The position numbers and the translations under genes were made by a program. From positions 1 to 32,000 of the forward strand of contig JAIRQE010000016.1 in assembly GCA_031256725.1 (NCBI GenBank): DNA of 32,000 nucleotides, read 5' to 3'. This DNA comes from Propionibacteriaceae bacterium. GTDB lineage: Bacteria > Actinomycetota > Actinomycetes > Propionibacteriales > Propionibacteriaceae. Shown in pieces: positions 2,870 through 21,197 of this stretch (position 1 is the stretch's first letter; every line of letters starts with the position of its first letter). The notes under the pieces were generated by a model. The model saw only the letters and a program-made list of their open reading frames with translations. It had not been told where the DNA came from and searched no databases.

Positions 2870-2940
2870 GGTGGAGTGGCCGAGAGGCGAGGCAGCGGCC
2901 TGCAAAGCCGTGTACACGGGTTCAAATCCCGTCTCCACCT
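2870..2940 (+). tRNA. tRNA-Cys (anticodon GCA)
   Basis: Acceptor GGTGGAG/CTCCACC, anticodon stem GCGGC/GCCGT with loop CTGCAAA, T arm ACGGG-TTCAAAT-CCCGT. 71 nt. Confidence 0.9.
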
Positions 2941-2951
2941 CGAAACAGCCC

Positions 2952-3284: not shown

Positions 3285-4469
3285 TTATCTGTACGCCTTC
3301 TCTACTGCTTGGATGATGTCGGCAATGAGATCCTCGGGATCTTCTAGGCCGATAGCTAGGCGTACAAGCTTGTCAGGGGCAGGATTAGTCGTGGAAGCCA
3401 TGGAGGCGTGGGTCATCGCGTAGGGGTACTCAATCAGTGACTCTGCGGCGCCGAGGGATGCTGCCAGTCTCAAGAGTTGGGTGCTTTCGGAGACCTTGCG
3501 GGCGAGTTCGGGGGAGTCCAACTCGAAGGAGATGACCCCACCAAATCCGCTCATCTGTCGGGCGGCAATGTCGTGCCCGGGGTGGGTGGGCAAACCTGGG
3601 TACCAAACCTGTGAGATCTGCGGTACCTCGGTGAGGGCTTCGGCGACTCTCTGGGCGGTAGCTGCGGATCTTTGTACCCGGACAACAAGGGTACGAAGGC
3701 CCCGATGAGCCAGCCAAGAATCGAAGGCTCCTGGTACTGAGCCAATTGCGTTCTGCCACCAACGGACCTCGTGGAGGACATCATCAGAGCCACTGAGGCC
3801 ATCATCGGGAAGGTGGAGGTCTGGTGCGAAGATGGCAGCACCTCCAACGTGATCAGAGTGGCCACCGATGTACTTTGTCGTCGAATGGATGACAATATCA
3901 GCACCCAATTCGATGGGCCGTTGGAAGACGGGGGTTGCGAAGGTGTTGTCAACGACAACCCATGCTCCGTACTCGTGGGCGACTGTGGAGAGGGCCTCGA
4001 TATCTGATAATTCTAGGAGGGGGTTGGAGGGGGTTTCGAGCCAGAGGACGCGAGCGTGGGTCTCCTCGAAGGCGGTGCGTACCTCATCCAAGTTCGCCAT
4101 GGAAACCCGATGGGTAGACCTACCTTCTCTCGGCAAAATCCAAGTAAACATCCGCCCTGTACCAGCGTACACATCATGCCCGCAAAGAATCGTGTCCCCA
4201 GGGCGGGTGAGGACGCGCACTAGGGTGTCCTCGGCATTTAGCCCTGAGGGAAAGGCGACGGCTCCAGCCCCAGATTCGAGGCTAGCTAAGGCTTCCTGGT
4301 AGCGGTCCCTCGTCGGATTTCCTGAGCGGGAGTAGTTGTACCGATCTGGTGCTCCTTCAATACCGTCGAGTTGAAAGGTTGATGCAAGAACAATGGGTGG
4401 TACAACGGCCCCGGTGAGGGGATCACTGGCTTGGCCGACTTGCACGGCTCGTGTCGAAAATCCTGGCAT
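3285..4469 (-). CDS. metB: PLP-dependent cystathionine gamma-synthase / gamma-lyase family enzyme (Cys/Met metabolism)
   Basis: 394-aa ORF with the Cys/Met-metabolism PLP family pattern, including the PLP-lysine block HSTTKYIGGHSD. Sequence alone cannot separate gamma-synthase from gamma-lyase activity. Confidence 0.88.
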   Translation of the reverse strand: MPGFSTRAVQVGQASDPLTGAVVPPIVLASTFQLDGIEGAPDRYNYSRSGNPTRDRYQEALASLESGAGAVAFPSGLNAEDTLVRVLTRPGDTILCGHDVYAGTGRMFTWILPREGRSTHRVSMANLDEVRTAFEETHARVLWLETPSNPLLELSDIEALSTVAHEYGAWVVVDNTFATPVFQRPIELGADIVIHSTTKYIGGHSDHVGGAAIFAPDLHLPDDGLSGSDDVLHEVRWWQNAIGSVPGAFDSWLAHRGLRTLVVRVQRSAATAQRVAEALTEVPQISQVWYPGLPTHPGHDIAARQMSGFGGVISFELDSPELARKVSESTQLLRLAASLGAAESLIEYPYAMTHASMASTTNPAPDKLVRLAIGLEDPEDLIADIIQAVEKAYR

Positions 4470-4532
4470 GAATCTCTTTCGTGTTCGGTGGGCGCACAGA
4501 TACGCCTAAAAGGTGTGGGGAGGGGTGTACAC

Positions 4533-4578
4533 GCGCAGGCCAGCAGATGGCAGAGATGCTTTGGTTAGCGGCCCGCGC
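4533..4578 (-). promoter_or_regulatory. RNA stem (4570-4578 pairs with 4533-4541; 9 bp including one G-U) whose 5' arm is the last four codons of the minus-strand mini-ORF
   Basis: Minus-strand GCGCGGGCC ... GGCCTGCGC, with a nested AGCA/TGCT helix in the 28-nt loop. It sits in the metB leader and is followed by the C-rich, G-free tract ACACCCCTCCCCACACC (plus coordinates 4512-4528). Confidence 0.4.
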
Positions 4579-4639
4579 ACAGCATTCGACCACAGCACAT
4601 GGCGGAACACATCGCCATTGGGATCTGGGTCGTACACAT
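4565..4639 (-). CDS. candidate Cys/Met-rich leader peptide MCTTQIPMAMCSAMCCGRMLCAGR upstream of metB
   Basis: 24 codons plus TAA, containing 5 Cys and 5 Met. In-frame alternative ATGs occur at 4618, 4612 and 4600. There is no SD, but a TANNNT hexamer (TAGCTT, plus coordinates 4647-4652) ends 7 nt before the ATG, which fits a leaderless start. The stop lies 95 nt upstream of the metB ATG. Confidence 0.45.
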   Translation of the reverse strand: MCTTQIPMAMCSAMCCGRMLCAGR

Positions 4640-4679
4640 GGGAAAGAAGCTACAGTTCCTTACCTAAGAAACCTAATTA

Positions 4680-4696
4680 GTCTCAATAATTGAGAC
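4680..4696. promoter_or_regulatory. 17-bp perfect palindrome GTCTCAAT-A-ATTGAGAC, candidate shared operator
   Basis: Read directly. It is centred in the AT-rich core between the two divergent mini-ORFs and sits just upstream of a possible plus-strand promoter (TAGACT 4700-4705, 18-nt spacer, TAATGT 4724-4729). Confidence 0.4.
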
Positions 4697-4778
4697 AAAT
4701 AGACTTTTTTGGTGAACTATGAGTAATGTAATGCCCCAGCTGGGAAAGCCAGTTGTTTCGCAATAGCTAGGAGGAGTC

Positions 4779-4826
4779 ATGGCCACAACCATGGTGAACA
4801 CCTTCTGCTGTTGTATGTGTATGTGA
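4779..4826 (+). CDS. candidate Cys/Met-rich leader peptide MATTMVNTFCCCMCM
   Basis: 15 codons plus TGA, preceded by AGGAGGAG (4769-4776). The last six codons are C C C M C M. It lies 145 nt upstream of the first gene of the methyltransferase/ABC operon. Confidence 0.6.
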   Translation: MATTMVNTFCCCMCM

Positions 4827-4900
4827 CGCGCTAGCTATTCAGAGCTAGGGGATGGTCCGATTCTGGGCTGTCTTGGTGAATGAGCCCGCGTCATTTTCTG
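4823..4900 (+). terminator. candidate attenuator: alternative pairings ending in a T-rich tract
   Basis: TGACGCG (4824-4830, containing the mini-ORF stop codon) is complementary to CGCGTCA (4887-4893). The same 3' segment can instead form the local hairpin AATGA-gcccgcg-TCATT (4879-4895). Both are followed by TTTTCTGTTG. A nested hairpin CTAGCT-attcag-AGCTAG sits at 4831-4848. Confidence 0.4.
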
Positions 4901-4971
4901 TTGTCATCCAACACATCCTCCCCGTTATTCTCGGGGAAAATATCACAATCATACAACAATAGGAGTTTATT

Positions 4972-5994
4972 ATGTCCACACGTCTGGAAACCTTCCAGAA
5001 CATCATCAACGGCCAAGGCGAAGGGTACCTCACCGCTGCCTGGAAGCATTTCGTTGGCGAGGAGTACGACCGTGCCCGCTTCGTCAAAGCACATGTCGAC
5101 TTCGTCCAGCAATGGGATTGGGACTGGGTCAAGATCAACCCACGAGCCAATTATTATGCAGAAACATGGGGTGCAAGTTACGACCCCACCAACTATGACA
5201 TCATGGTCCCAACCCTCGTTGAGGCTGCGATCACGAAGCCAAGCGATCTGTCCAAGATCGTCCCACTCAAGGCTCAGGACAACCCGATTCTTCGTGAAGA
5301 AATCGCCAGAGCCCGAGAAATCAAGCAGGCTTTCCCCGATCGTGCAGTGATCCAATCGGTCTTCTCGCCACTGGGTGTACTGCTCTTCTTGGCAGACATC
5401 CATCCCTTCCCGCCAGGTCCAGGTAGGGAAGCCAACGGCCCAGTCTCACTGACAGACCTGTTGGACACTGATCGAGCATTGACCCTCAAGGCTCTCGAAG
5501 CCATCACCGAGACCCTCAAGGACTATGTCATCGAACTATTGAAGCCAGTCGAAGAAGGTGGAGCCGGTCTCGACGGGATCTTCTATGCCGTCCTCGGATT
5601 ACCGTCAAAGAGCTTCATCCCCAAGGACAAGTTCGACCAGTTGTCCACCCCATTCGACTTGGGTGTCCTTGAAGCCGCCAAGGGTTCAGCTGTGGTCTTC
5701 CACACATGTTCAATGGACTCTCATCCTGATTGGTTCACTCAGTGGCCATTGAGTGCATTGCAATGGGATCAATTCCTTGACGGAAACCCCGATATTACAA
5801 CCGATCTGGGTGTGATCCCGGTGGGTGGACCCGAGGCTCGCCTGTTTGAAGAAGGGCAAGACCTTGACCTTCTCCAAGAGCAGTTGGCCCGTACCCTCGA
5901 ACAGCGTCAGGGCAAGCCGTTCCTGCTCGCTTCAAGCTGCTCTTTGCCGCTGCATACATCCGATGAAGCCCTCGAGATCCTCAGCAAAGCCTGA
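4972..5994 (+). CDS. uroporphyrinogen-decarboxylase-fold (MtaA/MtbA/CmuA-like) putative zinc-dependent thiol methyltransferase
   Basis: 340-aa ORF with AGGAG 6-7 nt upstream. The overall length and pattern fit the URO-D family. It carries His244-x-Cys246-x76-Cys323 (FHTCS ... ASSCSLP), the H-x-C-xn-C zinc-thiolate signature of corrinoid:thiol methyltransferases and MetE-like enzymes. Confidence 0.55.
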   Translation: MSTRLETFQNIINGQGEGYLTAAWKHFVGEEYDRARFVKAHVDFVQQWDWDWVKINPRANYYAETWGASYDPTNYDIMVPTLVEAAITKPSDLSKIVPLKAQDNPILREEIARAREIKQAFPDRAVIQSVFSPLGVLLFLADIHPFPPGPGREANGPVSLTDLLDTDRALTLKALEAITETLKDYVIELLKPVEEGGAGLDGIFYAVLGLPSKSFIPKDKFDQLSTPFDLGVLEAAKGSAVVFHTCSMDSHPDWFTQWPLSALQWDQFLDGNPDITTDLGVIPVGGPEARLFEEGQDLDLLQEQLARTLEQRQGKPFLLASSCSLPLHTSDEALEILSKA

Positions 5995-6014
5995 AACACA
6001 GAAAAGAGAAGAAA

Positions 6015-7166
6015 ATGAAAAAGAAAACACTCGCATCCCTTGTTATAGGTTTGGCCTTTGCTCTGAGCGCCTGCGCAGGACAGGGCGATCAGACGCAGAC
6101 AACTGACCAGGCCCAAGACTCTCCAGTGACCTTTGGGGTGATCTATCCTAAGACTGGTTCCTATGCAGAATATGGCCGTCTGTTCGAACAGGGTCTAGAA
6201 CTCGCAGTGGAGAAGGTGAACACTGATGGTGGAATCCATGGTCGCGACCTGAAACTGAAGTACTTTGATACTCAGTCCGATCCGAAGCAAGCAGCAGCGG
6301 TCGCGCCCAAACTCGTTGTTGATCCAGAGATTATCGTCGTCCTTGGTGACTATTCTTCTTCCTCATCGAAGGCGGCCTCACCAGCATTCCAGCAGGCGGG
6401 TTTGGTTCACTACGGATTCAACAACTCGGCCACAGACTTCCCGTCAACTGGTGACCATGTGTGGTCCCCGAGTTTTGGTACAGACTCCCTGATGCCAGTA
6501 TGGGCAGACGCTATCGCTGATACTGGCGCGAAGACAGTTTCGGTGATCTATATCGAAAATGACTGGGGTTTGCAGGCCTACGATTATTTCGCAGACCACA
6601 TCAAGACTCTTGGAGTCGAGATCGTCTACACCTCAGCCTACCCTGCGACACCAACTGATGATTATTCACCCATCCTCATCAAGGCTCGCGATGCCAAGGC
6701 GGATGCGATCGTACAGATTGGTTATGCCGAAGGTGCTCAGATTGTCAACACCCTTCGTGACACTCTCGGCTATAAAGGTCCCTTCTATGGTGGTCAGAGG
6801 ACTCCAGAGTTCTTGGATATCGCAGGCAAGAATGCTGAAGGATCGATCCTGAATGGACACTTCTCGAACGAAACAACTGTGCCTAGGGTTCAGGAGTTCT
6901 TGGCTGACTTCCGTGCAGCTTATGGAGTGGATCCGGGTGACTTCAATCTTTCTGCTTACCAGGCGGTGATTGACCTTGCCTATGGGATCAATAAGACTTC
7001 TCCCACTCGTGAGGGAGTGCAAGAAGCCCTACAAACAGTGACCGATTTTCCTGCCTATATTGGTCAGGCCGACACCTTCGCTTTCGATCAGGAAACCCGT
7101 CGACTCCTTGATCCGAAGCCCGGGCTTGTCATCGTTGAAGATGGCGAATTCAAACCATACAACTGA
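6015..7166 (+). CDS. ABC transporter substrate-binding lipoprotein, LivK/branched-chain-amino-acid (Peripla_BP_6) family
   Basis: 383 aa. The signal peptide has the lipobox LSAC (MKKKTLASLVIGLAFALSAC). The type I periplasmic-binding-protein pattern is present (FGVIYPKTGSYAEYG..., GDYSSSSS). Confidence 0.85.
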   Translation: MKKKTLASLVIGLAFALSACAGQGDQTQTTDQAQDSPVTFGVIYPKTGSYAEYGRLFEQGLELAVEKVNTDGGIHGRDLKLKYFDTQSDPKQAAAVAPKLVVDPEIIVVLGDYSSSSSKAASPAFQQAGLVHYGFNNSATDFPSTGDHVWSPSFGTDSLMPVWADAIADTGAKTVSVIYIENDWGLQAYDYFADHIKTLGVEIVYTSAYPATPTDDYSPILIKARDAKADAIVQIGYAEGAQIVNTLRDTLGYKGPFYGGQRTPEFLDIAGKNAEGSILNGHFSNETTVPRVQEFLADFRAAYGVDPGDFNLSAYQAVIDLAYGINKTSPTREGVQEALQTVTDFPAYIGQADTFAFDQETRRLLDPKPGLVIVEDGEFKPYN

Positions 7167-7174
7167 TGATCGTG

Positions 7175-7200
7175 TGGAGGGCCTCACAGGGGGCCCTCCA
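7175..7200 (+). promoter_or_regulatory. intercistronic GC-rich stem-loop (TGGAGGGCC-tcacaggg-GGCCCTCCA) after the SBP gene
   Basis: Perfect 9-bp stem with an 8-nt loop, 9 nt after the SBP stop. No U-tract follows. It lies within a 102-nt gap before the permease gene. Confidence 0.55.
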
Positions 7201-7268
7201 CGCTCCGTCAAGTCATCCCGCGTACTGCAATTGCATGCAGGACAGGATCCAGACCGAAAGACCACACC

Positions 7269-9125
7269 ATGATTGACACACTTATTGCCGGACTCCTTCA
7301 CGGAAACATCTACGCTCTCATCGCCGTGGGGATGTCCCTGATTTTCGGCGTGACACACGTCGCCAACTTTGCTCATGGGTCCATCTTCGCCATTGGTACC
7401 ATGCTGGGTTGGTTCCTGGGAGCCCAATTGGGATGGGGGATCATCCCAACTCTTGCAGCTGTCATCGTCATCACATCACTGCTTGGCTGGATCATTTCTG
7501 TACTCGTCGTAGGCCCCCTCGCACAGGGTCCACCGATCGCTGCCCTTCTAGCCACGATAGCTGTGGCGATGATCCTCGACGCACTCTCCCAGGTGATTTT
7601 CACTCCCGTGACACGCAAATTCCCCGAATTGCTTCCCACTCACAATCTTCAACTCGGTGGAGTCCACTTTGGTACTTCCTCTGTCGTCATGCTCATCGTC
7701 ACAATAGTCTCCATGGCTGCCCTGTGGGCCTTCCTTCGTTTCGGGAAGCTAGGTCAGGCTATTCGTGCAACGGCCCAAGACTCGGATTCGGCCAAGCAGG
7801 TCGGGATTCCGGTCGAAAGGATTCGCCACCTCTCCTTCATCATCGCTTCCGGCCTTGGGGGTATGGCTGGGATCTTCATGGGATTGTTCAACTCAACGAT
7901 CAATCCTTCCACTGGTGCCATCGCTGGCCTGACCGCATTCGTGGCAGCAACAATTGGTGGATTGGGATCCATGCCCGGTGCTGTCCTTGGTGGGCTCCTT
8001 CTTGGAGTAACGGAAGCCTTTGGTGTGTACTTCCTAGGCGGCTCCTATCGTGACATCATCATCTTTGGTGCTCTGGTTCTCATCCTCCTTCTGCGTCCAG
8101 CCGGGTTGGTTGGCAAGAAACTGGCAATTGAAACAGAGCCTATGACTCGTACCTTCCTTGGAGGTACACGCCCAATCCAGTTGCCATGGTTCGGCAACCT
8201 GGCTCTCATCGCTGGCCTAGCATTCATCCCGATCCTCTTTGGCCCTCAAATGGGCTCAGTTATCGCTGGTGTTGGTACCCAGGTTTTCGCGTACGCCATC
8301 GCAGCAATCGGGTTAACCATCATTGCTGGAGGTACAGGCCAGATTATTCTCGGCCAAGCTGGTGCAGTGGCTATGGGCGCCTATGGTTCAGCACTCCTAT
8401 CGGTTCACTATGGGTGGCCCTTCCTTGTCACCATCATTGCTGGGGCACTGATCGCTGCTGTGATCTGTTCGATTTTGATCTTCCCAGCATGGAAACTTTC
8501 AGGTCATTACGTGGCTATTGCCACGATTGGTGTGGGTTTCATCACAGTGGCCTTACTCAAGGTTTTAGAGCCCATCACCCGTGGTGTCAACGGAGTCTAT
8601 GGGATTCCTTATCCGGCAATCTTCGGTCTGCAGATCACCGATATTCGGGGGATCTACTGGGTGAATCTGGTTCTGATGGGGATTACCCTATTGCTCGTCA
8701 CAAAGATCATGGCCTCCCATCTCGGGAAGACTATTTCATCGATTGGTGCCGATCCGGTTGCGGCTGCATCCTTGGGTATCCGTGTCACTGGGTACAAGGG
8801 GTTGGCTTATGCCATCTCCGCATTCTTTGCAGGTCTTGCGGGGGCTCTGCTAGCCCATCAGTACACCTACATTGAGCCAGGTCAGTTCGATTTGAATATG
8901 TCAACAGTACTTCTGGCGATCATCGTGTTGGGTGGATTGCGTTCACCATTGGGTGCTGTCCTGGGGGCGATCATACTTCTGGGGGTACCAGAATTACTGA
9001 GAACCATCTTTGAAGACATCACCTGGTTTGTCTCCATCTTCCCCCATGCGCGCATCATCGTCTATGGACTGACCCTTATCCTCATCATCCGCTTCCGCCC
9101 GCAGGGCCTCTTCCAAAGGAGCTAG
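7269..9125 (+). CDS. fused LivH-LivM type ABC permease (branched-chain amino acid transporter family)
   Basis: 618-aa polytopic membrane ORF. The first ~290 aa are LivH-like and the remainder is LivM-like, in a single continuous frame. Confidence 0.85.
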   Translation: MIDTLIAGLLHGNIYALIAVGMSLIFGVTHVANFAHGSIFAIGTMLGWFLGAQLGWGIIPTLAAVIVITSLLGWIISVLVVGPLAQGPPIAALLATIAVAMILDALSQVIFTPVTRKFPELLPTHNLQLGGVHFGTSSVVMLIVTIVSMAALWAFLRFGKLGQAIRATAQDSDSAKQVGIPVERIRHLSFIIASGLGGMAGIFMGLFNSTINPSTGAIAGLTAFVAATIGGLGSMPGAVLGGLLLGVTEAFGVYFLGGSYRDIIIFGALVLILLLRPAGLVGKKLAIETEPMTRTFLGGTRPIQLPWFGNLALIAGLAFIPILFGPQMGSVIAGVGTQVFAYAIAAIGLTIIAGGTGQIILGQAGAVAMGAYGSALLSVHYGWPFLVTIIAGALIAAVICSILIFPAWKLSGHYVAIATIGVGFITVALLKVLEPITRGVNGVYGIPYPAIFGLQITDIRGIYWVNLVLMGITLLLVTKIMASHLGKTISSIGADPVAAASLGIRVTGYKGLAYAISAFFAGLAGALLAHQYTYIEPGQFDLNMSTVLLAIIVLGGLRSPLGAVLGAIILLGVPELLRTIFEDITWFVSIFPHARIIVYGLTLILIIRFRPQGLFQRS

Positions 9126-9127
9126 TC

Positions 9128-10744
9128 ATGACCATGAACCAATACGAAGTATCTGCTCTGACAGTCACCCAACTCAGCAAGAGTTTCGGGTCCCTGAAAG
9201 CTGTTGACGACGTTTCTTTTGTGATCCAACCCGGTGAGGTGGTCTCCATCATCGGTCCTAATGGATCAGGGAAAACCACTCTCATCAACCTCATCTCAGG
9301 GCTTCTGCAACCCGATTCGGGAGCCATTGTCTTTGCAGGTCAGGATCTCACACGAGCCAATCAGGTGGGTGTGTGTGAAGCGGGCATAGGTCGTACCTTC
9401 CAAAATGGACGAGTCTTTGCAAGCATGACTGTCGATGACAACGTCGAACTTGGGCTACACAGCAAGCTGACAGCGAACCGTCCGGGTAAAAGGTTCTCCA
9501 GATTCCCTGTAGGTAACTGGGTCAACCTTCTCGCCGAGGCGGCTGTGTCCTTGATTCCCTCACCTCAAGCGAAGAAGGAGTTGGCCAAAGCTCAGGGCAA
9601 GATTGACGAGCAAATTGCCCGATTCAAGACTCGTCTCGAACCTCGACGCAACCACCTTGCGTATACACTCTCCTATGCGAACAGGCGACGTACGGAAATT
9701 GCGCGAGCCCTCGTCGCCCAGCCCAAGCTTCTCCTTCTTGATGAGCCCACCGCTGGGATGAATCAGGCCGAAACCAAGGAGGTGTTACGCCAGCTTCTCG
9801 AACTGAAGCAAGAAGGACAGTCCATGCTCCTGGTTGAGCATAAGATCGATTTGGTGTTGACCCTCTCCGATCGGGTGATCGTCATGGACTCTGGCAAGAA
9901 GATCGCTGAAGGCAAGCCCGATAGCTTGCATGAAAATCCGGTCGTCATGGAAGCCTACCTGGGTACGCGCCGTGAGGCGATCACTGTACGACCACCGCGT
10001 CCCGCTAGTGATGAACCGCTCCTTGAACTGGACAATGTCAACATCTTTTATGGGCTAGTACAAGCCCTCACCGATGTGTCGCTTACAGTAGGCAAGGGAG
10101 AAATTGTCTCCCTTCTTGGAGGAAATGCTTCAGGAAAGTCGACAACCATGAAGACAATTCTTGGTTTGCTTGAGCCCAAGACTGGCACAGTCACATTCCA
10201 GGGGAATAATCTCACGACCGCGAGTACAGCCGCCCGGGTTCGAGCGGGGATGGCATCTGTACCCGAGGCTCGACGGATCTTCCCAGAGATGACTGTTTAC
10301 GAGAACCTCATGTCGGGGGCCTATACCCGCATGGATCGACAAGGTATTCGTGAGGATCTCGACAGGGTCTTCGAGTATTTCCCCCGCCTGTGGGAGAGGA
10401 AAAACCAGGATGCTGGAACCCTCTCAGGAGGGGAACAGCAGATGCTGGCCTTTGGTCGAGCCCTGATGACGAACCCCGTACTCATCTGCATGGATGAACC
10501 CACAATGGGTTTGGCCCCCAAACTCGTCGAACAGGTACTAGAGCAGATAGCCCACCTGAGAAATGAACTTGGTGTCTCAGTTCTCATGGTTGAGCAACAA
10601 GCAGAGTTGGCGCTGTCCATCGCCGACCGTGGCTATGTTCTCAACCAAGGGGAGATCACCCTTCAAGGATCTGCCCAGACACTCCTGGATGATCCCGGAC
10701 TTAAGGAGGCTTACTTTGGTCGCCAACCCGAGTACAACATCTAG
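9128..10744 (+). CDS. fused LivG-LivF type ABC ATPase (two nucleotide-binding domains)
   Basis: 538 aa. NBD1 has Walker A GPNGSGKTT, signature LSYANRRR and Walker B LLLLDEP. NBD2 has GGNASGKST, LSGGEQQML and LICMDEP. Confidence 0.9.
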   Translation: MTMNQYEVSALTVTQLSKSFGSLKAVDDVSFVIQPGEVVSIIGPNGSGKTTLINLISGLLQPDSGAIVFAGQDLTRANQVGVCEAGIGRTFQNGRVFASMTVDDNVELGLHSKLTANRPGKRFSRFPVGNWVNLLAEAAVSLIPSPQAKKELAKAQGKIDEQIARFKTRLEPRRNHLAYTLSYANRRRTEIARALVAQPKLLLLDEPTAGMNQAETKEVLRQLLELKQEGQSMLLVEHKIDLVLTLSDRVIVMDSGKKIAEGKPDSLHENPVVMEAYLGTRREAITVRPPRPASDEPLLELDNVNIFYGLVQALTDVSLTVGKGEIVSLLGGNASGKSTTMKTILGLLEPKTGTVTFQGNNLTTASTAARVRAGMASVPEARRIFPEMTVYENLMSGAYTRMDRQGIREDLDRVFEYFPRLWERKNQDAGTLSGGEQQMLAFGRALMTNPVLICMDEPTMGLAPKLVEQVLEQIAHLRNELGVSVLMVEQQAELALSIADRGYVLNQGEITLQGSAQTLLDDPGLKEAYFGRQPEYNI

Positions 10745-10953: not shown

Positions 10954-10969
10954 TCGAACATATGTTCGA
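10954..10969. promoter_or_regulatory. LexA (SOS) box TCGAACATATGTTCGA
   Basis: Perfect match to the actinobacterial SOS box TCGAAC-N4-GTTCGA. It overlaps a candidate -10 (TATGTT 10961-10966), with a candidate -35 TAGACT at 10937-10942 (18-nt spacer). It lies 21 nt upstream of the small ORF start. Confidence 0.85.
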
Positions 10970-10990: not shown

Positions 10991-11266
10991 ATGGAGACTG
11001 GTGATTTGGTTGCAGTGTGGGCCACTGAGACTGGTGTGCCCCAGAAGTTTGAGTGGCGTGGACACTCTTATGTGGTCTGTGGTCATCCTGTGCCATGGGT
11101 GGATCGCCTGCCGTGGTGGAGCCTTGGACAGGAGGGACCGCTGAATGCATTGGAGCAGCAGATGTGGAGGGTCTCGGGGGTGAATCCCGATACTGGTCAT
11201 GTCACCTGTGTGGATTTGGCTGTGGAAGAGCCCTCATGGTGGCGGCTGGCGAGTATTCACGAGTGA
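10991..11266 (+). CDS. small Trp-rich hypothetical protein, SOS-box controlled and coupled to dnaE2
   Basis: 91-aa ORF with GAGG 5 nt upstream of the ATG. Its TGA stop is separated by 1 nt from the dnaE2 ATG. Nine Trp in 91 residues. I recognise no family with confidence. Confidence 0.6.
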   Translation: METGDLVAVWATETGVPQKFEWRGHSYVVCGHPVPWVDRLPWWSLGQEGPLNALEQQMWRVSGVNPDTGHVTCVDLAVEEPSWWRLASIHE

Positions 11267-11267
11267 C

Positions 11268-14200
11268 ATGTCGACAGGGTTTGTGCATTTGCATGTGGCG
11301 AGTTGTTTCTCGACACATTTTGGTACTGCGTGGCCTGAGGATTTTGTCCTGGCTCAGAGCTTATCCCCGGCGGCAGCATTAACGGATCGCGATGGATTTT
11401 ATGGGGTGGTTCGCCATGTACGAACCTGTCTTGAAGTGGGGATCTCGCCCATCGTGGGGGTAGACCTATGCGTGGGTTCTCATGATCGTGTGAGGCTGGA
11501 CAGTACCCGTGGAACCCGTGCTCATAACACCTATGACGGTGGAATAGTTGGTGGCCAGATTACGGTCCTGGCCCATGGGCATGATCATGGTGTGGGGTGG
11601 GCGAGTGTTTCTCGTCTTATTTCTGCTGCCCATCATGATGGGGTCAAGAATGGGCCAGGGACGATTAACCGAGCGGCGATGGTTACCCCGGATCGAATCC
11701 CATCCCTTCTTTGTGGGGATGATGGACCCTGTGCGACCATTCTTCTTGGTCCGGAGTCTGATCTAGGACAGGCCGTCTTGGCTTCAGATGTACCACGGGC
11801 GAAAACCCTTCTCAGGGCTTGGAAATCCGCATTTCCGAATATCGTGATCGAGATCTCAAGTCATTACACGCAACCAGGGATGAGTGGGTCGATACCCCAT
11901 GCGGCCGGGATGTTTGAGATGGCTTTAGCGAGTGGTACTCCGTTTGTACTCACGAATGCTGTGCGCTATCTCCACCGCGATGATGCGATCACTGGGGATC
12001 TTCTCGATTCAGCTGGACGCCTGCAACCAATGGGGAGTTTTGATCCGCAGCCGAATGCCCAAGCCTGGCTCAAGGATGCGAAATCTATGCGACAGGTGGC
12101 TGAGGATGTGGCCAGATATGCCGGGGAGCCTGGGTTGGCGACGAGGCTTTATGAATCACCACTGCCCTTGGTGGAGCGCTGTGTTGTGGATCCGCATGAG
12201 GATTTGGGGTGGCAGCGAGCCAAGGTGCCAGAACTGGAGGTGATAGGCCTGTCAGGGGACCCTCAAAAGATCTTGGATGAGCGATGTCGAGGAGGGTTGG
12301 TACATCGGTGGCCACGTCCTAATCAGGATCTTCTGAATCAGATCACAGATCGGTTAAACACTGAACTTCGGATCATCGAGTCCTTCGGTTTCGCAACCTA
12401 TTTTCTCATGGTGGCAGATGTCGTTGATCTGATTAAAGGTCTCAAAATTAGGGTACAAGCGCGCGGTTCGGGAGCAGGGTCGCTGGTCAATTATTGCTTG
12501 GGAGTCTCGAACGTGGATCCGGTGGAGAATGATCTACTTTTCGAGCGTTTCCTTGGGCTCAAGAGGGAGACCTTGCCCGACATCGACATTGATGTGGAAT
12601 CTGCCAGGCGCCACGACGTGTACTACGCAGTCACGCGTAGGTATGGGTCCCATCGGGTGGCTCTGCTGTCGATGCAAAACCAGTACAAGACTCGTGGTGC
12701 TCTCAGGGATACTGGCCTGGCTCTGGGGTTGCCGAACGAGAAGATTGACCGTACCGCCAAATCCTTATGGAGACTCAATGTATCCGAGATATCTGAGGCA
12801 CTGAAATCTCGACCCGAGTTGGCGGAACTCGCCCGTGAAGTCGACGCTGATCCACGATTGCGGGTACTTCTCAACCAGAGTAAGCGGCTGTATCGCTTGC
12901 CGCGCTATATTGCTATGCACCCGTGTGGGGTGATCCTTTCAGACCAGCATCTGCTCAGTCTGACGCCGACCCAGCCTTCTGGGCTGGGGATTCCAATGAG
13001 CCAATTTGATAAGGATGATATTGACGACATGGGATTACTAAAGCTAGATATTTTGGGGGTACGGATGCAATCCACGATTGCCTACACCCTCGACGAGATT
13101 GAACGCCGTCACGGGGACAGGGTTGATGTGGAGACCATCGCCTTCGATGATGAACCCACTTTCGACCAGATTCGTAGTACCCACAACCTGGGGGTGTTTC
13201 AGATCGAATCCCGTGGTCAGCGTGAACTTGTCGGCACAATGCAGCCGGATTCTTTCGCTGATCTGGTGGCTGACATCTCGCTGTATCGCCCAGGGCCGAT
13301 GAAAAGCAATATGATTACTCCCTTTGTGGAGGCGAAACTGGGATTTCGTTCACCCCAATGCCTGCATCCGCGTTTTCGTCAGACTCTGGGGGACTCCTAT
13401 GGTGTGGTGATCTATCACGAACATGTGATTCGGATCCTCGCTGACTGTATGGGGATCACCTTGGGGGAAGCTGATGGGGTGCGCCGACGACTGGGGAAGC
13501 ACCACGACGATGTTGAAGTGGAGTTCCGGACTCGAGCTGCGCAACGCAGTGATGAGCATGGGCGGCGACTGTTCACTGATGCCTATATTGATCGAATCTG
13601 GGAAACCATGAAGAGTTTTGGTAGCTTCGGATTCTGTAAGGCTCATGCAGCGGCTGTTGCGGTGACCACCTATCAGTCGGCCTGGTTGAAGACCCATTAT
13701 CCGGTCGAGTTCATGGCTGGGATCATGGAACATGGTCCAGGGATGTACCCCAAGAGACTCCTACTCACCGAAGCTAAACGCATGGGGATTCCCATCTACG
13801 GGATCGACGTGAACACCTCGACTGACCATTATCGGGTTGACGAGGGGGCCCAGGGTGCGGGGATTCGGATGCCCTTCATCGAGATCAAAGGGATCTCTGG
13901 GACAGAGGTACGTCGCTTGATCGAGGGGCAACCCTATTCCTCTGTTCTTGATGTGATCCAACGTGGAAGGGTTTCGCGTGTCACGATGCAGCGGTTGGCT
14001 GGGATTGGTGGCCTCGATTCTGTGTCACGCGGCTCCTCTAGGGGTACAATCCTCGCGCAGGTACGCCATCTCACAGCTCGACCAATCGCGACACCCTGTG
14101 AAGATCAGGAGGCACTCGTGGATGAGGATGGGGTCTCAACTATCGTCTTTCCTGAGGTACCCGACGTGGATCCCCTTTCTGCAGAACTCGACATTCTCGG

Positions 14201-14579
14201 TATTGATGTCAGTGGCCATGCCCTTGATCCGTGGAGGGGACTCTTGGATGAGATTGGTGTCACCCCTGTTGATCAGCTCTTGAATCTGCGCAACAACTCT
14301 CGAGTAGTTGTCGCTGGAATCCGAGTTTCCGCCATGACCTCACCCAGCAAATCCAAGAAGCGTGTGGTCTTCATCTCCCTCGACGATGGTACAGGTGTGG
14401 CTGACTGTGCTTTCTTTGATGATGCTCAACATCGTGTTGGTCCCGACCTGTTTCGTACCCGGTTGCTCGCCGTCAAAGGGATCACCAGACGTACAGGGGC
14501 TAAGGGGATCAGCATCAATGCTACTGAAGCCTGGGATTTCACCCGTGCGGTGTCACAAGATACATCTCATGATATCTGA
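11268..14579 (+). CDS. dnaE2: error-prone DNA polymerase III alpha-type subunit DnaE2
   Basis: The ~1103-aa product starts MSTGFVHLHVASCFS (PHP domain) and has pol III alpha core blocks. Its size is typical of DnaE2, and a LexA box lies upstream. The ORF-track start at 11199 overlaps the small ORF and is rejected. Confidence 0.88.
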   Translation: MSTGFVHLHVASCFSTHFGTAWPEDFVLAQSLSPAAALTDRDGFYGVVRHVRTCLEVGISPIVGVDLCVGSHDRVRLDSTRGTRAHNTYDGGIVGGQITVLAHGHDHGVGWASVSRLISAAHHDGVKNGPGTINRAAMVTPDRIPSLLCGDDGPCATILLGPESDLGQAVLASDVPRAKTLLRAWKSAFPNIVIEISSHYTQPGMSGSIPHAAGMFEMALASGTPFVLTNAVRYLHRDDAITGDLLDSAGRLQPMGSFDPQPNAQAWLKDAKSMRQVAEDVARYAGEPGLATRLYESPLPLVERCVVDPHEDLGWQRAKVPELEVIGLSGDPQKILDERCRGGLVHRWPRPNQDLLNQITDRLNTELRIIESFGFATYFLMVADVVDLIKGLKIRVQARGSGAGSLVNYCLGVSNVDPVENDLLFERFLGLKRETLPDIDIDVESARRHDVYYAVTRRYGSHRVALLSMQNQYKTRGALRDTGLALGLPNEKIDRTAKSLWRLNVSEISEALKSRPELAELAREVDADPRLRVLLNQSKRLYRLPRYIAMHPCGVILSDQHLLSLTPTQPSGLGIPMSQFDKDDIDDMGLLKLDILGVRMQSTIAYTLDEIERRHGDRVDVETIAFDDEPTFDQIRSTHNLGVFQIESRGQRELVGTMQPDSFADLVADISLYRPGPMKSNMITPFVEAKLGFRSPQCLHPRFRQTLGDSYGVVIYHEHVIRILADCMGITLGEADGVRRRLGKHHDDVEVEFRTRAAQRSDEHGRRLFTDAYIDRIWETMKSFGSFGFCKAHAAAVAVTTYQSAWLKTHYPVEFMAGIMEHGPGMYPKRLLLTEAKRMGIPIYGIDVNTSTDHYRVDEGAQGAGIRMPFIEIKGISGTEVRRLIEGQPYSSVLDVIQRGRVSRVTMQRLAGIGGLDSVSRGSSRGTILAQVRHLTARPIATPCEDQEALVDEDGVSTIVFPEVPDVDPLSAELDILGIDVSGHALDPWRGLLDEIGVTPVDQLLNLRNNSRVVVAGIRVSAMTSPSKSKKRVVFISLDDGTGVADCAFFDDAQHRVGPDLFRTRLLAVKGITRRTGAKGISINATEAWDFTRAVSQDTSHDI

Positions 14580-19928: not shown

Positions 19929-21197
19929 ATGATGGATGATTCGCGCTTGGTGAGTTCTGGATCCCGCGACGAAGTCGACACTTTCTCATTCACTCCAGGT
20001 ACTTCCATCCCGGGTCGACTTGGTCGTACCGGGGTCATCCACACCCCGCACGGGGATATTCGTACCCCTGCTTTCATTGTTGTTGGTACGGCTGCAACCG
20101 TGAAGGGGGTACTTCCTCGAGACATTAAAGACCTGGGAGCTCAGGCCGTACTTGCGAATGCTTACCATCTGTACCTCCAACCAGGCTCTGATATCGTCGA
20201 CGAAGCTGGAGGAGTGGGGTCCTTTATGGGATGGGATGGGCCAACTTTTACTGACTCGGGGGGGTTCCAGGTCCTGAGCCAGGGGGCAGGATTCAAGAAA
20301 GTGTTGGCTATGTCAACAGCGGGCCTGGCAAGCGATGATGTGATCGCCAAGGGCAAGGATCGACTGGCTGTGGTTGATGATGATGGGGTGAATTTCCGCT
20401 CCTATCGTGACGGATCCAAACACCGCTTCACCCCTGAGGTTTCGATGGGAATCCAGCATCAACTCGGTGCGGACATCATGTTTGCCTTCGATGAATGTAC
20501 GACGTTAATGAACACCCGTGGGTACCAAGAAAGTTCCCTGGATCGTACCTATGCCTGGGCTTTGCGCTGTCTCGCGGAACATCGTCGGTTGACTGTGGAG
20601 AGGGTAGGGAAGCCCTATCAGGCGCTCTTTGGGGTTGTCCAAGGAGCTCAATTTGAGGACCTCCGACGTAAGGCTGCGCGAGATCTGGCTGAGGCTGAGG
20701 TCGATGGACAGATCTTCGACGGCTTCGGTATCGGTGGGGCCCTAGAGAAGGAGAACCTGGGTACGATTTGCCGCTGGGTGAACGAGGAACTCCCAGTTGA
20801 CAAGCCGAGACACCTGCTGGGCATCTCTGAGCCAGAGGATCTGTTTGCTGCTATTGAGCAGGGTGCGGATACCTTCGATTGTGTGAACCCTTCAAGGACA
20901 GCACGCAATGGGCGGGCCTACACCCACGAGGGTTGGTACAACGTGGACACCCTCCCCTCAAAGCGTAGTTTCACCCCTATCGAGGAGGGCTGCGATTGCT
21001 ACACCTGCGCCCACTACACCCGCGCCTACCTCCATCATCTTGCCCGCTCCAAGGAACTTGTTCTCTATACCCTGATGACAATCCACAATGAACGTTTCCA
21101 TGTACACCTAGTCGACCAAATCCGAAAATCCATCGACGGTGGCTACTTTGATGACTACAGAACCGACTTCCTTGGAAGGTACCGCCGTCCAGCCTAA
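19929..21197 (+). CDS. tgt: tRNA-guanine(34) transglycosylase (queuine/preQ tRNA-ribosyltransferase)
   Basis: 422 aa with the TDSGGFQV and FDEC catalytic blocks and zinc site CDCYTC...H. It starts 22 nt after rsmE. Confidence 0.9.
   Translation: MMDDSRLVSSGSRDEVDTFSFTPGTSIPGRLGRTGVIHTPHGDIRTPAFIVVGTAATVKGVLPRDIKDLGAQAVLANAYHLYLQPGSDIVDEAGGVGSFMGWDGPTFTDSGGFQVLSQGAGFKKVLAMSTAGLASDDVIAKGKDRLAVVDDDGVNFRSYRDGSKHRFTPEVSMGIQHQLGADIMFAFDECTTLMNTRGYQESSLDRTYAWALRCLAEHRRLTVERVGKPYQALFGVVQGAQFEDLRRKAARDLAEAEVDGQIFDGFGIGGALEKENLGTICRWVNEELPVDKPRHLLGISEPEDLFAAIEQGADTFDCVNPSRTARNGRAYTHEGWYNVDTLPSKRSFTPIEEGCDCYTCAHYTRAYLHHLARSKELVLYTLMTIHNERFHVHLVDQIRKSIDGGYFDDYRTDFLGRYRRPA

Follow-up and report, generated by a model that had tools for sequence, protein, structure and literature searches.

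A candidate sulfur amino acid acquisition module combining an MtaA-like enzyme, a Liv-type importer and a Cys/Met-rich leader in a Propionibacteriaceae bacterium

Introduction

Does a short Cys/Met-rich open reading frame placed ahead of a methyltransferase-like gene and the genes of a complete amino acid ABC importer mark a single regulated unit and, if so, what does this unit acquire? The question is raised by the first 32,000 nucleotides of a Propionibacteriaceae contig (GenBank assembly GCA_031256725.1, JAIRQE010000016.1), hereafter the window. The reading that we favor, with a probability of about 0.6, is that positions 4724–10744 constitute a single operon which acquires a sulfur amino acid or a close relative and is switched by the Cys/Met-rich leader.

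Results

Layout of the locus

All the features named by the first-pass annotation were recovered (Table 1), and the same gaps of 20, 102 and 2 nt were obtained between the successive genes of the unit. Of the checks which that annotation suggested, each one open to computation turned out in its favor. Downstream, the boundary of the predicted operon is marked by a LexA-box-like site and a separate dnaE2-like gene. The product of the divergent metB-like gene is closest to the cystathionine gamma-synthase model PRK07811, yet scores below its cut-off; the leader ORF of this gene is partly conserved in a related locus (L080). The palindrome in the divergent promoter region is possibly a regulator binding site, and a TCTCA motif recurs in relatives. 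The intercistronic hairpin might function as an mRNA stabilizer or a partial terminator.

Table 1 Features of the locus (window coordinates)
Feature	Position	Strand	Remarks
metB-like gene	3285..4469	-	Cys/Met-metabolism PLP enzyme; divergent from the operon
Second Cys/Met-rich leader ORF	4565..4639	-	MCTTQIPMAMCSAMCCGRMLCAGR-stop; ends 95 nt upstream of the metB-like start codon
Perfect palindrome	4680..4696	.	GTCTCAATAATTGAGAC; divergent promoter region; read from sequence
Putative -10 box	4724..4729	+	TAATGT; aligned with the invariant TAGAGT of close relatives
5' hairpin (helix 1)	4737..4755	+	CAGCUGG/CCAGUUG; near the putative transcript start; 97% paired, 2 compensatory pairs
Leader Shine-Dalgarno region	4760..4776	+	AGGAGGAG at 4769-4776, strong
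Helix A	4760-4776 with 4801-4814	+	Shine-Dalgarno region with Cys-codon tract; predicted by folding of the window
Leader ORF	4779..4826	+	MATTMVNTFCCCMCM-stop; Cys codons 4806-4814, 4818-4820; Met codons 4791, 4815, 4821
Three-way junction, conserved	4823..4894	+	-33 kcal/mol, z = -2.5; closing stem 4823-4830/4887-4894; P1 4831-4848, P2 4849-4874, P3 4875-4886
U/pyrimidine-rich tail	4895..4906	+	UUUCUGUUGUCA; directly 3' of the closing stem
Ribosome-binding and start region of the enzyme gene	4953..4984	+	AACAAUAGGAGUUUAYYAUGUCCAC, nearly invariant in nucleotides
UroD-superfamily, MtaA-like enzyme gene	4972..5994	+	340 aa; invariant His244-x-Cys246 and Cys323
Lipoprotein substrate-binding protein	6015..7166	+	Peripla_BP_6, Liv/HAAT type; lipobox LSAC; altered invariant pocket signature
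GC-rich intercistronic hairpin	7174..7201	+	GUGGAGGGCC/GGCCCUCCAC; no U tail; read from sequence
Fused LivH and LivM permease	7269..9125	+	Two BPD_transp_2 matches
Fused LivG and LivF ATPase	9128..10744	+	Two ABC_tran matches; BCA_ABC_TP_C on the LivG part

Recurrence and genomic context

About 50 actinobacterial loci show the same enzyme-importer gene order, and metB-, metY- or MGL-like genes lie nearby in 30 of the 53 actinobacterial loci. In Firmicutes (27 loci), the enzyme gene adjoins genes of a MetNIQ-type transporter, in the order MetN-MetI-enzyme-MetQ, and a SAM riboswitch precedes it in the two detected cases (L055:7802-7911 and L069:4184-4291). Together with the second Cys/Met-rich leader on the metB-like gene, these contexts provide independent support for the link to sulfur amino acids that had been drawn from the leader peptide of the window. 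Genes for ProC-like, Glyoxalase_3-like and M20 proteins accompany the enzyme gene in 22 Firmicutes and 9 Bifidobacterium loci.

The enzyme

The product of the first gene had been called URO-D-like, a label that holds for the superfamily but not for the Pfam score of the window protein itself, which reaches 19.4 bits against a cut-off of 23.9. The placement in the UroD superfamily follows from homologues that do exceed this cut-off, from a structure model (pLDDT 95) with the (beta-alpha)8 UroD fold, whose top Foldseek match is MtaA (PDB 4ay7/4ay8, TM 0.77), and from a match of the family profile to 4ay7 at E = 2e-22; a profile restricted to Actinobacteria gave no match to 4ay7. The description as a zinc methyltransferase-like enzyme is backed by the invariant His244, Cys246 and Cys323, which align with the HxC and C motifs of MtaA ('LHICG', 'APGCG'), that is, with the type of motif that binds zinc and activates a thiol in the MT2 enzymes MtaA, MtbA and MtsA. 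Such His-Cys-Cys zinc sites are typical of S/Se-methyltransferases within the superfamily (PMC10418091).

The family is nevertheless remote from these MT2 enzymes: identity is only about 15%, no NCBIfam MtaA/MtbA model is matched above its cut-off, the WDWDW and KINPRA motifs are specific to the present family, and its genes reside in non-methanogenic Actinobacteria and Firmicutes, next to amino acid importers rather than to a corrinoid protein or an activase. Neither a corrinoid protein nor a RamA-type activase was found in the window, and the conserved neighbours at 79 loci likewise include none.

The importer and its binding protein

The transporter parts find their best NCBIfam and PDB matches among Liv proteins. 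Both the four domain types and the binding-protein fold are those of LivJ/LivK-LivHMGF (HAAT family), but here the two permeases are fused, as are the two ATPases. Mapped onto what we take to be the LivJ sequence and residue roles, the binding protein keeps the carboxylate contacts and the equivalents of Tyr18, Ser79, Tyr202 and Phe276. However, its pocket differs invariantly from that of LivJ (L77Y, A100N, A101N, T102S, Y150W, and deletion of the Glu226 position) and is more aromatic and polar, which, at the level of sequence, suggests a ligand other than a plain branched-chain amino acid and favors the first-pass interpretation.

The leader peptide and its RNA

Short ORFs with Cys clusters occur 5' of the enzyme gene at 19 of the 24 loci scanned (Propionibacteriales, Alloscardovia and related), compared with 0.8 expected from shuffled sequences and 3 on the reverse complement; most Bifidobacterium loci have no such leader upstream, which counts against the favored reading. 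The Cys/Met-rich leader noted at first recurs in three classes whose sequences are unrelated to each other. Cysteine makes up 18.8% of the leaders but 1.0% of the window proteins (19-fold enrichment) and internal methionine 12.2% versus 2.1% (6-fold), and the leader Cys codons differ synonymously (TGC/TGT) between aligned close relatives. The leader is predicted to be mainly a cysteine sensor.

Leader-type sensing of cysteine is already known from mycobacteria, where polycysteine short ORFs act as Cys-responsive attenuators (Canestrari et al. 2020, 10.1101/834739). As in this 'Cys ribulon', a short actinobacterial ORF with consecutive Cys codons precedes cysteine-related operons, the amino acid would be sensed through ribosome stalling, and a genome can carry several such leaders, here one on the metB-like gene and one on the importer operon. 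Unlike the leaderless mycobacterial ORFs, the present one possesses a Shine-Dalgarno sequence and a 5' hairpin, is additionally enriched in Met codons, has its stop codon within the 5' arm of a terminator-like helix, and precedes different genes.

The pairing of the Shine-Dalgarno region with the Cys-codon tract is likewise predicted in class 2 leaders; in the alignment of close relatives, the test covered the 7-bp SD:anti-SD part of this pairing (helix 2). In the same alignment, the junction helices are 100% paired, with compensatory changes in P1-P3. For the class 1 structure as a whole, 96% of the alignment cells are paired, with 10 compensatory pairs compared with 4.6+/-1.3 in shuffles (0 of 500 shuffles reach 10, and slid controls yield 0-3). 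The near invariance of the ribosome-binding and start region of the enzyme gene is seen among relatives whose proteins share just 54-72% identity. In class 2, an analogous helix without a U tail (13 pairs, 92% paired, 2 compensatory) joins the 3' end of the leader with a site about 95 nt downstream, and Alloscardovia (L016) has a canonical terminator with a U6 tail that overlaps the last leader codons and the stop codon.

In the window, the closing stem of the junction overlaps the leader stop codon, and we infer that the junction and the U-rich tail form an attenuator terminator. In the proposed switch, the trigger would be a scarcity of charged tRNA-Cys (and tRNA-Met) during leader translation. 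When cysteine is plentiful, the ribosome would complete the leader and depart, so that the 5' arm of a long helix (the one that closes the junction in the window), made up of the final leader codons and the stop, could pair and terminate transcription; when it runs short, a ribosome halted on the Cys codons would cover this arm and RNA polymerase would read into the operon. Stalling at the last Cys codon, 4 nt before the arm, would matter most. A ribosome halted at the first Cys codons would fall short of the arm, which counts against this model, and a three-way junction is an unusual shape for a terminator, which counts against the attenuator reading, as does the lack of a U tail in class 2; the junction in the window was not called by a simple or consensus terminator scan.

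The trp, his and leu attenuators likewise combine a leader ORF rich in regulatory codons with structured RNA and a U-rich tail ahead of the operon, but here the terminator would be a three-way junction and no alternative antiterminator hairpin of the 2:3 type was found. The position of the stop codon within the terminator 5' arm suggests direct occlusion by the ribosome, nearer to pyrBI-type coupling. Masking of the Shine-Dalgarno sequence as in mycobacteria is not supported, because the accessibility of that of the enzyme gene did not change consistently when the RNA was folded at equilibrium with ribosome footprints as constraints.

Discussion

Proposed function and alternatives

In the operon as we picture it, the Liv-type ABC system would import an amino-acid-like compound other than a plain branched-chain amino acid, and the MtaA-like enzyme would, through its His-Cys-Cys zinc site, activate a thiol for transfer of an alkyl (methyl) group, with no corrinoid protein dedicated to it. 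To our knowledge, the characterized close structural relatives MtaA, MtbA and MtsA all act with corrinoid proteins, which counts against the corrinoid-free aspect. Our best guess for the chemistry is that a methyl group is transferred by way of a zinc thiolate, with an imported sulfur amino acid or methyl donor as the substrate. With low confidence, we prefer the conversion of homocysteine to methionine by an imported activated donor such as S-methylmethionine, from which cysteine could then be made via the neighbouring transsulfuration-type PLP enzymes. The working analogy is MmuP/MmuM of Escherichia coli, an S-methylmethionine permease and a homocysteine S-methyltransferase, likewise an importer and a zinc-dependent thiol methyltransferase that supply the methionine pool; however, MmuM comes from another family (PF02574), MmuP is not an ABC transporter but a secondary permease, and S-methylmethionine as the substrate here is a guess. 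Two observations count against this reaction: use of S-methylmethionine leaves the accompanying ProC-like, Glyoxalase_3-like and M20 genes unexplained, and a Cys-sensing leader better matches a product that yields cysteine than one that yields methionine.

A possible alternative, to which we give distinctly less credence than to the preferred reading, is that the importer brings in a thiol or thioether amino acid such as homocysteine or methionine and the enzyme is a methionine synthase that works alone, analogous to MetE or to the 'core-MetE' Mes families and supplied by an endogenous donor (methyl-folate, SAM or free methylcobalamin). The zinc-thiolate site agrees with this, as do the S-box control resembling that of metE, the YxjG-like core-MetE gene in the same S-box operon as the enzyme gene (L069), and the metY-like homocysteine synthase gene directly downstream in bee-gut Bifidobacterium. 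MetE is also the next structural relative found by Foldseek after MtaA and UROD, but the enzyme is devoid of the folate-binding second barrel. Moreover, this alternative leaves the methyl donor unspecified and the near-constant adjacency of the enzyme gene to a binding-protein gene, across two transporter families, unexplained.

Somewhat more doubtful is a version in which the same regulated operon takes up an aldehyde adduct or S-conjugate, from which the enzyme frees cysteine (or homocysteine). Candidate compounds are thiazolidine-4-carboxylate (thioproline), 2-substituted thiazolidines and djenkolate; the zinc site would then hold the departing thiolate instead of catalyzing methyl transfer. 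A cysteine-yielding product suits the predominantly cysteine-sensing leader, PDB relatives indicate that a Liv-type binding protein can take proline-like ligands, and the enzyme accompanies a ProC equivalog, a Glyoxalase_3 protein and an M20 amidohydrolase in two phyla. P5C reductase can oxidize thioproline to N-formylcysteine, which an amidohydrolase could deformylate. However, none of these three genes is present in the window, the Firmicutes unit is under a SAM riboswitch rather than a cysteine-type control, and we know of no adduct-releasing activity of this kind in the UroD superfamily.

It appears unlikely that the enzyme demethylates an imported methylthio or methylseleno compound in a corrinoid-dependent system, like the mlp clusters or MtsA, with the corrinoid protein encoded elsewhere. 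The closest characterized relatives are indeed corrinoid:thiol methyltransferases, and Propionibacteriaceae are commonly B12 producers; conversely, the carriers Bifidobacterium and Alloscardovia generally lack B12 synthesis, the conserved neighbours at the 79 loci include no corrinoid partner or activase, and the family is remote from the characterized MT2 enzymes, its Actinobacteria-only profile missing 4ay7. The Type 1 mlp clusters of non-methanogens also encode MtaA-like proteins with the His-Cys-Cys site common to Mlp proteins, in a context of methyl-sulfur or methyl-selenium metabolism and at times with methionine transporters, but they always include a corrinoid protein, a RamA-type activase and several Mlp paralogues, none of which occur here, and, unlike the present module, are carried by strict anaerobes (Kountz and Balskus, PMC10418091).

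Finally, an ordinary branched-chain amino acid importer lying by chance beside a UroD-family gene and a chance ORF, which the Liv-type best matches and the sub-threshold Pfam score of the enzyme might suggest, is highly improbable and already contradicted by the comparative data, namely synteny over about 50 loci, leader recurrence far beyond chance, RNA covariation, an invariant pocket unlike that of LivJ, and the S-box and MetNIQ context in Firmicutes.

Implications

A literature search found no paper on the enzyme-importer module, in line with the first-pass annotation, which knew of no characterized system with this gene combination. Given that about 50 actinobacterial genomes carry the pairing, and about 27 Firmicutes a version of it with another importer and, in two detected cases, a SAM riboswitch, the module probably represents an undescribed route for the acquisition of sulfur amino acids.

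Organization of the gene cluster

The window comes from a Propionibacteriaceae metagenome-assembled genome, and ORF calls agreed exactly with the first-pass description of a leader ORF, four genes for an enzyme, a solute-binding protein (SBP), a permease and an ATPase, and a divergent metB-like gene (see the table); the gaps between the four genes are 20, 102 and 2 nt. The claim that the last three of these genes encode a complete Liv-type importer, with a lipoprotein SBP, a fused permease and a fused ATPase, agrees with the Pfam and NCBIfam domains, which make up a full HAAT set: a Peripla_BP_6 SBP, two BPD_transp_2 domains, and LivG-type and LivF-type ATPase domains. The hairpin in the gap between the SBP and permease genes may set the ratio of the two proteins. 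Downstream of the ATPase gene, the motif TCGAACATATGTTCGA, which we take to match the actinobacterial LexA SOS box, lies ahead of a dnaE2-like gene and marks a separate unit.

Features of the window and of comparison loci (L-numbers) from other genomes that carry homologs of the enzyme
Feature	Position	Strand	Remarks
Cys-rich short ORF MCPRSGCPCITCFCPRNHGARKTVGV	101-21	-	window edge, directed at a gene outside the window
tRNA-Cys(GCA)	2870-2941	+	in a Gly-Cys-Val-Val tRNA cluster, adjoins the metB-like gene; <2 kb from both Cys leaders
metB-like gene	3285-4469	-	Cys/Met-metabolism PLP enzyme, divergent
Second leader, MCTTQIPMAMCSAMCCGRMLCAGR and stop	4639-4565	-	95 nt upstream of the metB-like gene
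Perfect palindrome GTCTCAATAATTGAGAC	4680-4696		inside AGTCT...AGACT, between the two leaders
AGGAGGAG	4769-4776		3 nt before the leader ATG
Leader ORF	4779-4826	+	15 codons, MATTMVNTFCCCMCM and stop
Class 1 three-way junction, closing stem	4823-4830/4887-4894		8 bp, then a U/pyrimidine-rich tail
Junction hairpins	4831-4848, 4849-4874, 4875-4886		
Near-invariant block	4953-4984		RBS and first enzyme codons
Enzyme gene	4972-5994	+	340 aa
SBP gene	6015-7166	+	383-aa lipoprotein, signal MKKKTLASLVIGLAFALSAC; Peripla_BP_6
GC-rich hairpin	7174-7201		10 bp, without U tail; in the 102-nt SBP-permease gap
Permease gene	7269-9125	+	618 aa; LivH+LivM fusion
ATPase gene	9128-10744	+	538 aa; LivG+LivF fusion
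TCGAACATATGTTCGA	10954-10969		in a 455-nt spacer
dnaE2-like gene	11199-14579		
TGT-family tRNA-guanine transglycosylase	19929-21197	+	
Pnkp-Hen1 RNA repair cassette	23453-27405	-	PNKP ligase, kinase and phosphatase domains; Hen1_L with methyltransferase domain
Vut_1 (YhhQ-like) transporter	27430-28146	-	vitamin/queuosine precursor; same window as TGT
SAM riboswitch, Bacillus canaveralius	L055:7802-7911		directly upstream
SAM riboswitch, Amphibacillus	L069:4184-4291		operon head
Amphibacillus operon	L069:4184-5875		SAM riboswitch, YxjG/YxjH-like 'core MetE' gene, then MetN-MetI-enzyme-MetQ
ProC/Glyoxalase_3/M20 set, Firmicutes	among L053-L079, e.g. L071:3133-11456		
ProC/Glyoxalase_3/M20 set, Bifidobacterium	L026, L032, L035-L037, L040, L041, L043, L048, around 6000-7650		
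LysR-type regulator and class I/II aminotransferase	L197/L003/L007, 5652-7922		one Bifidobacterium group, directly upstream of the enzyme
Duplicate enzyme-SBP pairs or extra enzyme paralogs	L036, 8001-10401 and 12885-17013; L032, 1113-2048; L047, 9321-10385		

A zinc thiol-methyltransferase-like enzyme without a nearby corrinoid partner

The enzyme is identical (100%) to the NCBI protein LBG99_05335 and belongs to a family of 563 representatives (exhaustive search, E <= 0.001), whose homologs in Propionibacteriaceae, Propionicimonas, Raineyella, Bifidobacterium and Alloscardovia carry a single label, 'uroporphyrinogen decarboxylase family protein'. Homologs pass the Pfam URO-D model at 86-98 bits and stay far under the NCBIfam MtaA cut-offs; the window enzyme itself reaches only 19.4 bits on URO-D, under the 23.9 cut-off, and has no NCBIfam match, so that independent support was needed for its assignment to this superfamily. 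An AlphaFold (AF2) model made from 53 sequences (pLDDT 95) has the UroD-type (beta-alpha)8 barrel, and Foldseek retrieved first the methanogen methylcobalamin:CoM methyltransferase MtaA (4ay8/4ay7, TM 0.77), then true UroD enzymes and then MetE. In PDB searches, the single window sequence matched unrelated proteins at no better than chance level (E 0.15 or weaker), an Actinobacteria-only profile gave one match of this chance level, and a Paenibacillus homolog gave none; a profile including remote homologs matched 4ay7 at E = 2.4e-22, with UroD far behind at 3e-10. In the profile alignment, His244-x-Cys246 and Cys323 of the enzyme stand opposite the 'LHICG' and 'APGCG' motifs of MtaA; even when 62 remote homologs are included, H244 and C323 never vary and C246 reaches at least 90% conservation. 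In S-methyltransferases of the UroD superfamily the zinc sphere is His-Cys-Cys, and the cysteines are replaced in O-methyltransferases (PMC10418091). The fold and the aligned motif thus uphold the first-pass description of a zinc methyltransferase-like enzyme, and a zinc-thiolate type of active site is well supported as a prediction from sequence.

Whereas MtaA systems and the mlp corrinoid clusters of Kountz/Balskus encode a corrinoid protein or its reductive activase, we found neither in the window nor among the conserved neighbors of the enzyme in 79 loci.

Recurrence and exchange of partners across phyla

A scan with one genome per species yielded these 79 loci. The first-pass proposal that the gene combination should be sought in other neighborhoods proved productive: about 50 actinobacterial loci, from Propionibacteriales, Bifidobacterium, Alloscardovia, Galliscardovia and one Intrasporangiaceae MAG, share the order enzyme, SBP, LivHM permease and LivG/F ATPase(s), as do close metagenomic relatives; one of these relatives (L084) is an exception in that the genes downstream of the enzyme have no family annotation, leaving the order there unconfirmed. 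Of 53 actinobacterial loci, 30 have a Cys_Met_Meta_PP gene no more than 8 kb away, and the ATPase gene of bee-gut Bifidobacterium is followed on the same strand by a metY-like O-acetylhomoserine sulfhydrylase gene. Some Bifidobacterium genomes carry two enzyme-SBP pairs or an additional enzyme paralog, and in two loci (L038 and L047) the enzyme occurs without a transporter.

In Firmicutes (27 loci from Paenibacillus and Bacillaceae) the enzyme is present, the Liv system is absent, and the enzyme gene is flanked by the MetI and MetQ genes of a MetNIQ-type importer and frequently accompanied by an MGL-like PLP enzyme, an M20 amidohydrolase, a ProC equivalog and a Glyoxalase_3 protein. SAM riboswitches precede the genes in Bacillus canaveralius and Amphibacillus. 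The Amphibacillus operon also encodes a core-MetE protein, bringing together two different zinc-thiol-methyltransferase-like barrels. The ProC equivalog, Glyoxalase_3 and M20 set accompanies the enzyme in 22 Firmicutes loci and 9 Bifidobacterium loci; in the latter, M20 genes are present and the ProC-like and Glyoxalase_3 homologs (45-48% and 30-36% identity) lie divergently beside the enzyme. This set hints at a longer pathway, possibly one acting on thiazolidine-type or N-acylated substrates. One Bifidobacterium group has a LysR-type regulator and an aminotransferase in the position that the Cys leader takes in other lineages.

Because the enzyme occurs in both phyla with importer and regulator swapped, it is the constant core of the module. 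Regulation of the importer-enzyme module by sulfur amino acids is well supported, and judging from these gene neighborhoods the module appears to stay under such control while its importer family and regulator change.

Cargo and reaction

The SBP is nearest to amino-acid-binding HAAT proteins. When mapped onto what we take to be the sequence and residue roles of LivJ, the E. coli branched-chain amino acid binder, all 52 enzyme-linked SBPs keep Tyr18, Ser79, Tyr202 and Phe276 (LivJ numbering) but share the changes L77Y, A100N, A101N, T102S and Y150W and a deletion at the position of Glu226, so that relative to this presumed reference the LivJ/LivK branched-chain pocket is absent. From the kept and altered residues, the ligand is probably a carboxylate or amino-acid-like compound, not a plain branched-chain amino acid; we speculate that the greater aromaticity of the pocket would favor a thioether or a sulfonium.

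Our preferred guess for the reaction, made by analogy with MmuP/MmuM, is that the enzyme would methylate homocysteine with an imported activated methyl donor, for example S-methylmethionine. The likeness is functional only, because MmuM belongs to PF02574 and the only family that the enzyme matches is URO-D. The guess is favored by zinc-thiolate chemistry in the absence of a corrinoid, by S-box control, by adjacency to metY and by the plant- or gut-associated habits of the hosts; however, it leaves the ProC-like, Glyoxalase_3 and M20 partners unexplained and fits a cysteine sensor less well. On these two points a rival, in which the enzyme frees cysteine from thiazolidine-type adducts, has its appeal. 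In another rival the enzyme would be a stand-alone methionine synthase with imported homocysteine as its substrate, a reading to which the structural match to MetE is relevant, although MtaA ranks higher. The enzyme might also be a corrinoid-dependent demethylase, as its kinship with MtaA would allow, but its partner would then have to be encoded elsewhere, a nearby one being rejected on the survey of the window and conserved neighbors. Chance adjacency to a plain branched-chain transporter is ruled out by the synteny, the recurrence of the leaders and the altered SBP pocket.

Cys/Met leaders

The first-pass annotation had also described a Cys/Met-rich leader, and this claim held up: its consecutive Cys codons are conserved, and 19 of 24 non-Bifidobacterium loci have, upstream of the enzyme, a short ORF with three or more Cys within a stretch of 6 codons, against 0.8 expected from shuffles and 3 on the reverse complement. 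Cys leaders were not found in Bifidobacterium proper except in B. mongoliense. The leaders contain 18.8% Cys and 12.2% internal Met, compared with 1.0% and 2.1% in the window proteins, and their Cys codons vary synonymously among relatives, as expected if translation matters. They fall into three classes of unrelated sequence: class 1, ..T(S/F)(C/Y)CC(M/I)C(L/M/S) followed by the stop codon, in the window and its relatives; class 2, MSRSMSG.SHR.MRA...CRCCxCxxCMSSxN, of the Propionicimonas type; and class 3 in Alloscardovia, for example ..MMRCEMCCRMCCCMCR. A metagenome scan with TGTNNGTGACGCGCTAGC for a larger class 1 alignment gave 110 matches, of which one is a true leader (L128, matching L085) and the others are due to chance. 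Collectively, leader-based sensing has good support in some lineages.

The intergenic regions of the 32 kb contain only three Cys-cluster short ORFs. Besides the leader of the predicted operon, these are the one ahead of the metB-like gene, which has no obvious Shine-Dalgarno sequence and is partly conserved in a relative (L080), and the one at the window edge, which could represent a third Cys leader. Sulfur-amino-acid leaders are therefore present on both arms of the region between the metB-like gene and the predicted operon. The palindrome between them, at whose place relatives have a TCTCA motif, may be a regulator-binding site.

RNA structure and a proposed attenuation switch

In class 1 an invariant UGACGCGCUAGC runs across the stop codon, which is part of the closing stem of a three-way junction. 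Over six sequences 96% of cells are paired, with 10 compensatory pairs compared with 4.6+/-1.3 after shuffling (0 of 500 reach 10) and 0-3 for slid partners; the folding energy of the junction element by itself is -33 kcal/mol (z = -2.5), and the entire leader region has a z of -3.3. In class 2 the final leader codons and stop (GAGCGCGAACUGAC) pair with GUC..GUUCGCGCUC, which lies some 95 nt farther downstream, forming a helix of 13 pairs (92% paired, 2 compensatory) without a U tail, and in Alloscardovia criceti (L016) the last two leader codons and the stop form the 5' arm of a canonical hairpin followed by U6. In classes 1 and 2 and in L016 of class 3, for which the helix could be delimited, 3-7 nt separate the last Cys codon from the 5' arm. 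Pairing of the Cys tract with the Shine-Dalgarno region of its own leader is predicted for classes 1 and 2, and with an ACAACA segment within the leader ORF for Alloscardovia.

We infer that the leader is an attenuator acting by direct ribosome occlusion. A ribosome stalled at the last Cys (or Met) codons would cover the 5' arm of the putative terminator, whereas one that completes the leader would depart in time for the helix to form, the hairpins inserted in the junction perhaps supplying the time for its departure. Against occlusion, the arm would stay uncovered if the ribosome were held as early as the first Cys codons, the U tract is missing from class 2, and neither MFE nor consensus folds contain the mutually exclusive antiterminator of classical attenuators. 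A consensus promoter/terminator scan gave counts at shuffle level and no terminator for the leader.

The mycobacterial polycysteine leader acts by unmasking a downstream ribosome-binding site (10.1101/834739). For our loci such masking, whether by the Cys tract or by the pyrimidine-rich tail, was not adopted: a hand-drawn pairing that masks the enzyme RBS reaches 12 of 13 pairs in the window but is not conserved, and constrained partition-function folding of 14 leaders, which models equilibrium only, gave no consistent change in accessibility of the enzyme Shine-Dalgarno sequence. The mycobacterial transcript is moreover leaderless, whereas here a Shine-Dalgarno sequence, a conserved 5' hairpin and a putative -10 box lie upstream of the leader, so that the transcript, with its start placed from sequence, would not be leaderless. 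The 30-nt block around the enzyme start (AACAAUAGGAGUUUAYYAUGUCCAC) is near-invariant although the proteins of these relatives are 54-72% identical; no pairing partner was established for it. A riboswitch was rejected because Rfam matched nothing in window positions 4350-5100, a class 2 locus (L011) and eight Bifidobacterium loci.

Novelty and implications

Taken singly, none of the three components (Cys-sensing leaders, Liv-type importers and MtaA-like enzymes) is of a new kind. What is new is their combination, an MtaA-like enzyme without a nearby corrinoid partner, a module that spans phyla and can exchange its importer and its sulfur sensor, and a leader with its stop codon within the putative terminator arm. 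The first-pass annotation knew of no characterized system with this gene combination, and our full-text search of the literature open without subscription likewise found no description of it, nor of the enzyme family in a sulfur-amino-acid or Bifidobacterium context. Taken jointly, the data might reflect a new corrinoid-independent branch of the MtaA/MetE type, an undescribed salvage step, a cross-phylum module and a single-helix leader, a reading to which we assign a probability of roughly one third. Under it, the zinc-thiolate enzyme would act directly on the compound delivered by its partner ABC importer; the ProC-like, Glyoxalase_3-like, M20 and PLP enzymes would belong to the cross-phylum module; Cys/Met leader peptides, SAM riboswitches and LysR- or GntR-type regulators would be three sulfur-sensing controls; and a stalled ribosome would block a terminator containing the leader's own stop codon. 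That the enzyme represents new chemistry is, by itself, a tentative proposal that we consider less probable than its opposite, at about one third as well.

Many bifidobacteria and gut Actinobacteria need external cysteine or methionine, a dependence that restricts their cultivation and influences their ecology; their acquisition routes for these amino acids are only partly known. The module is widespread, in Bifidobacterium, Alloscardovia, Propionibacteriales, Paenibacillus and Bacillaceae, and closely tied to sulfur-amino-acid sensing. With these leaders, cysteine-sensing short ORFs, described in mycobacteria, would be present in other Actinobacteria too, and the compact arrangement, with the stop codon inside the putative terminator arm, lends itself to testing. 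If the enzyme is corrinoid-independent, MtaA-type chemistry reaches beyond corrinoid systems. The identity of the cargo would give models of gut and plant-associated bacteria another nutrient route and would assign a function to many 'uroporphyrinogen decarboxylase family' proteins.
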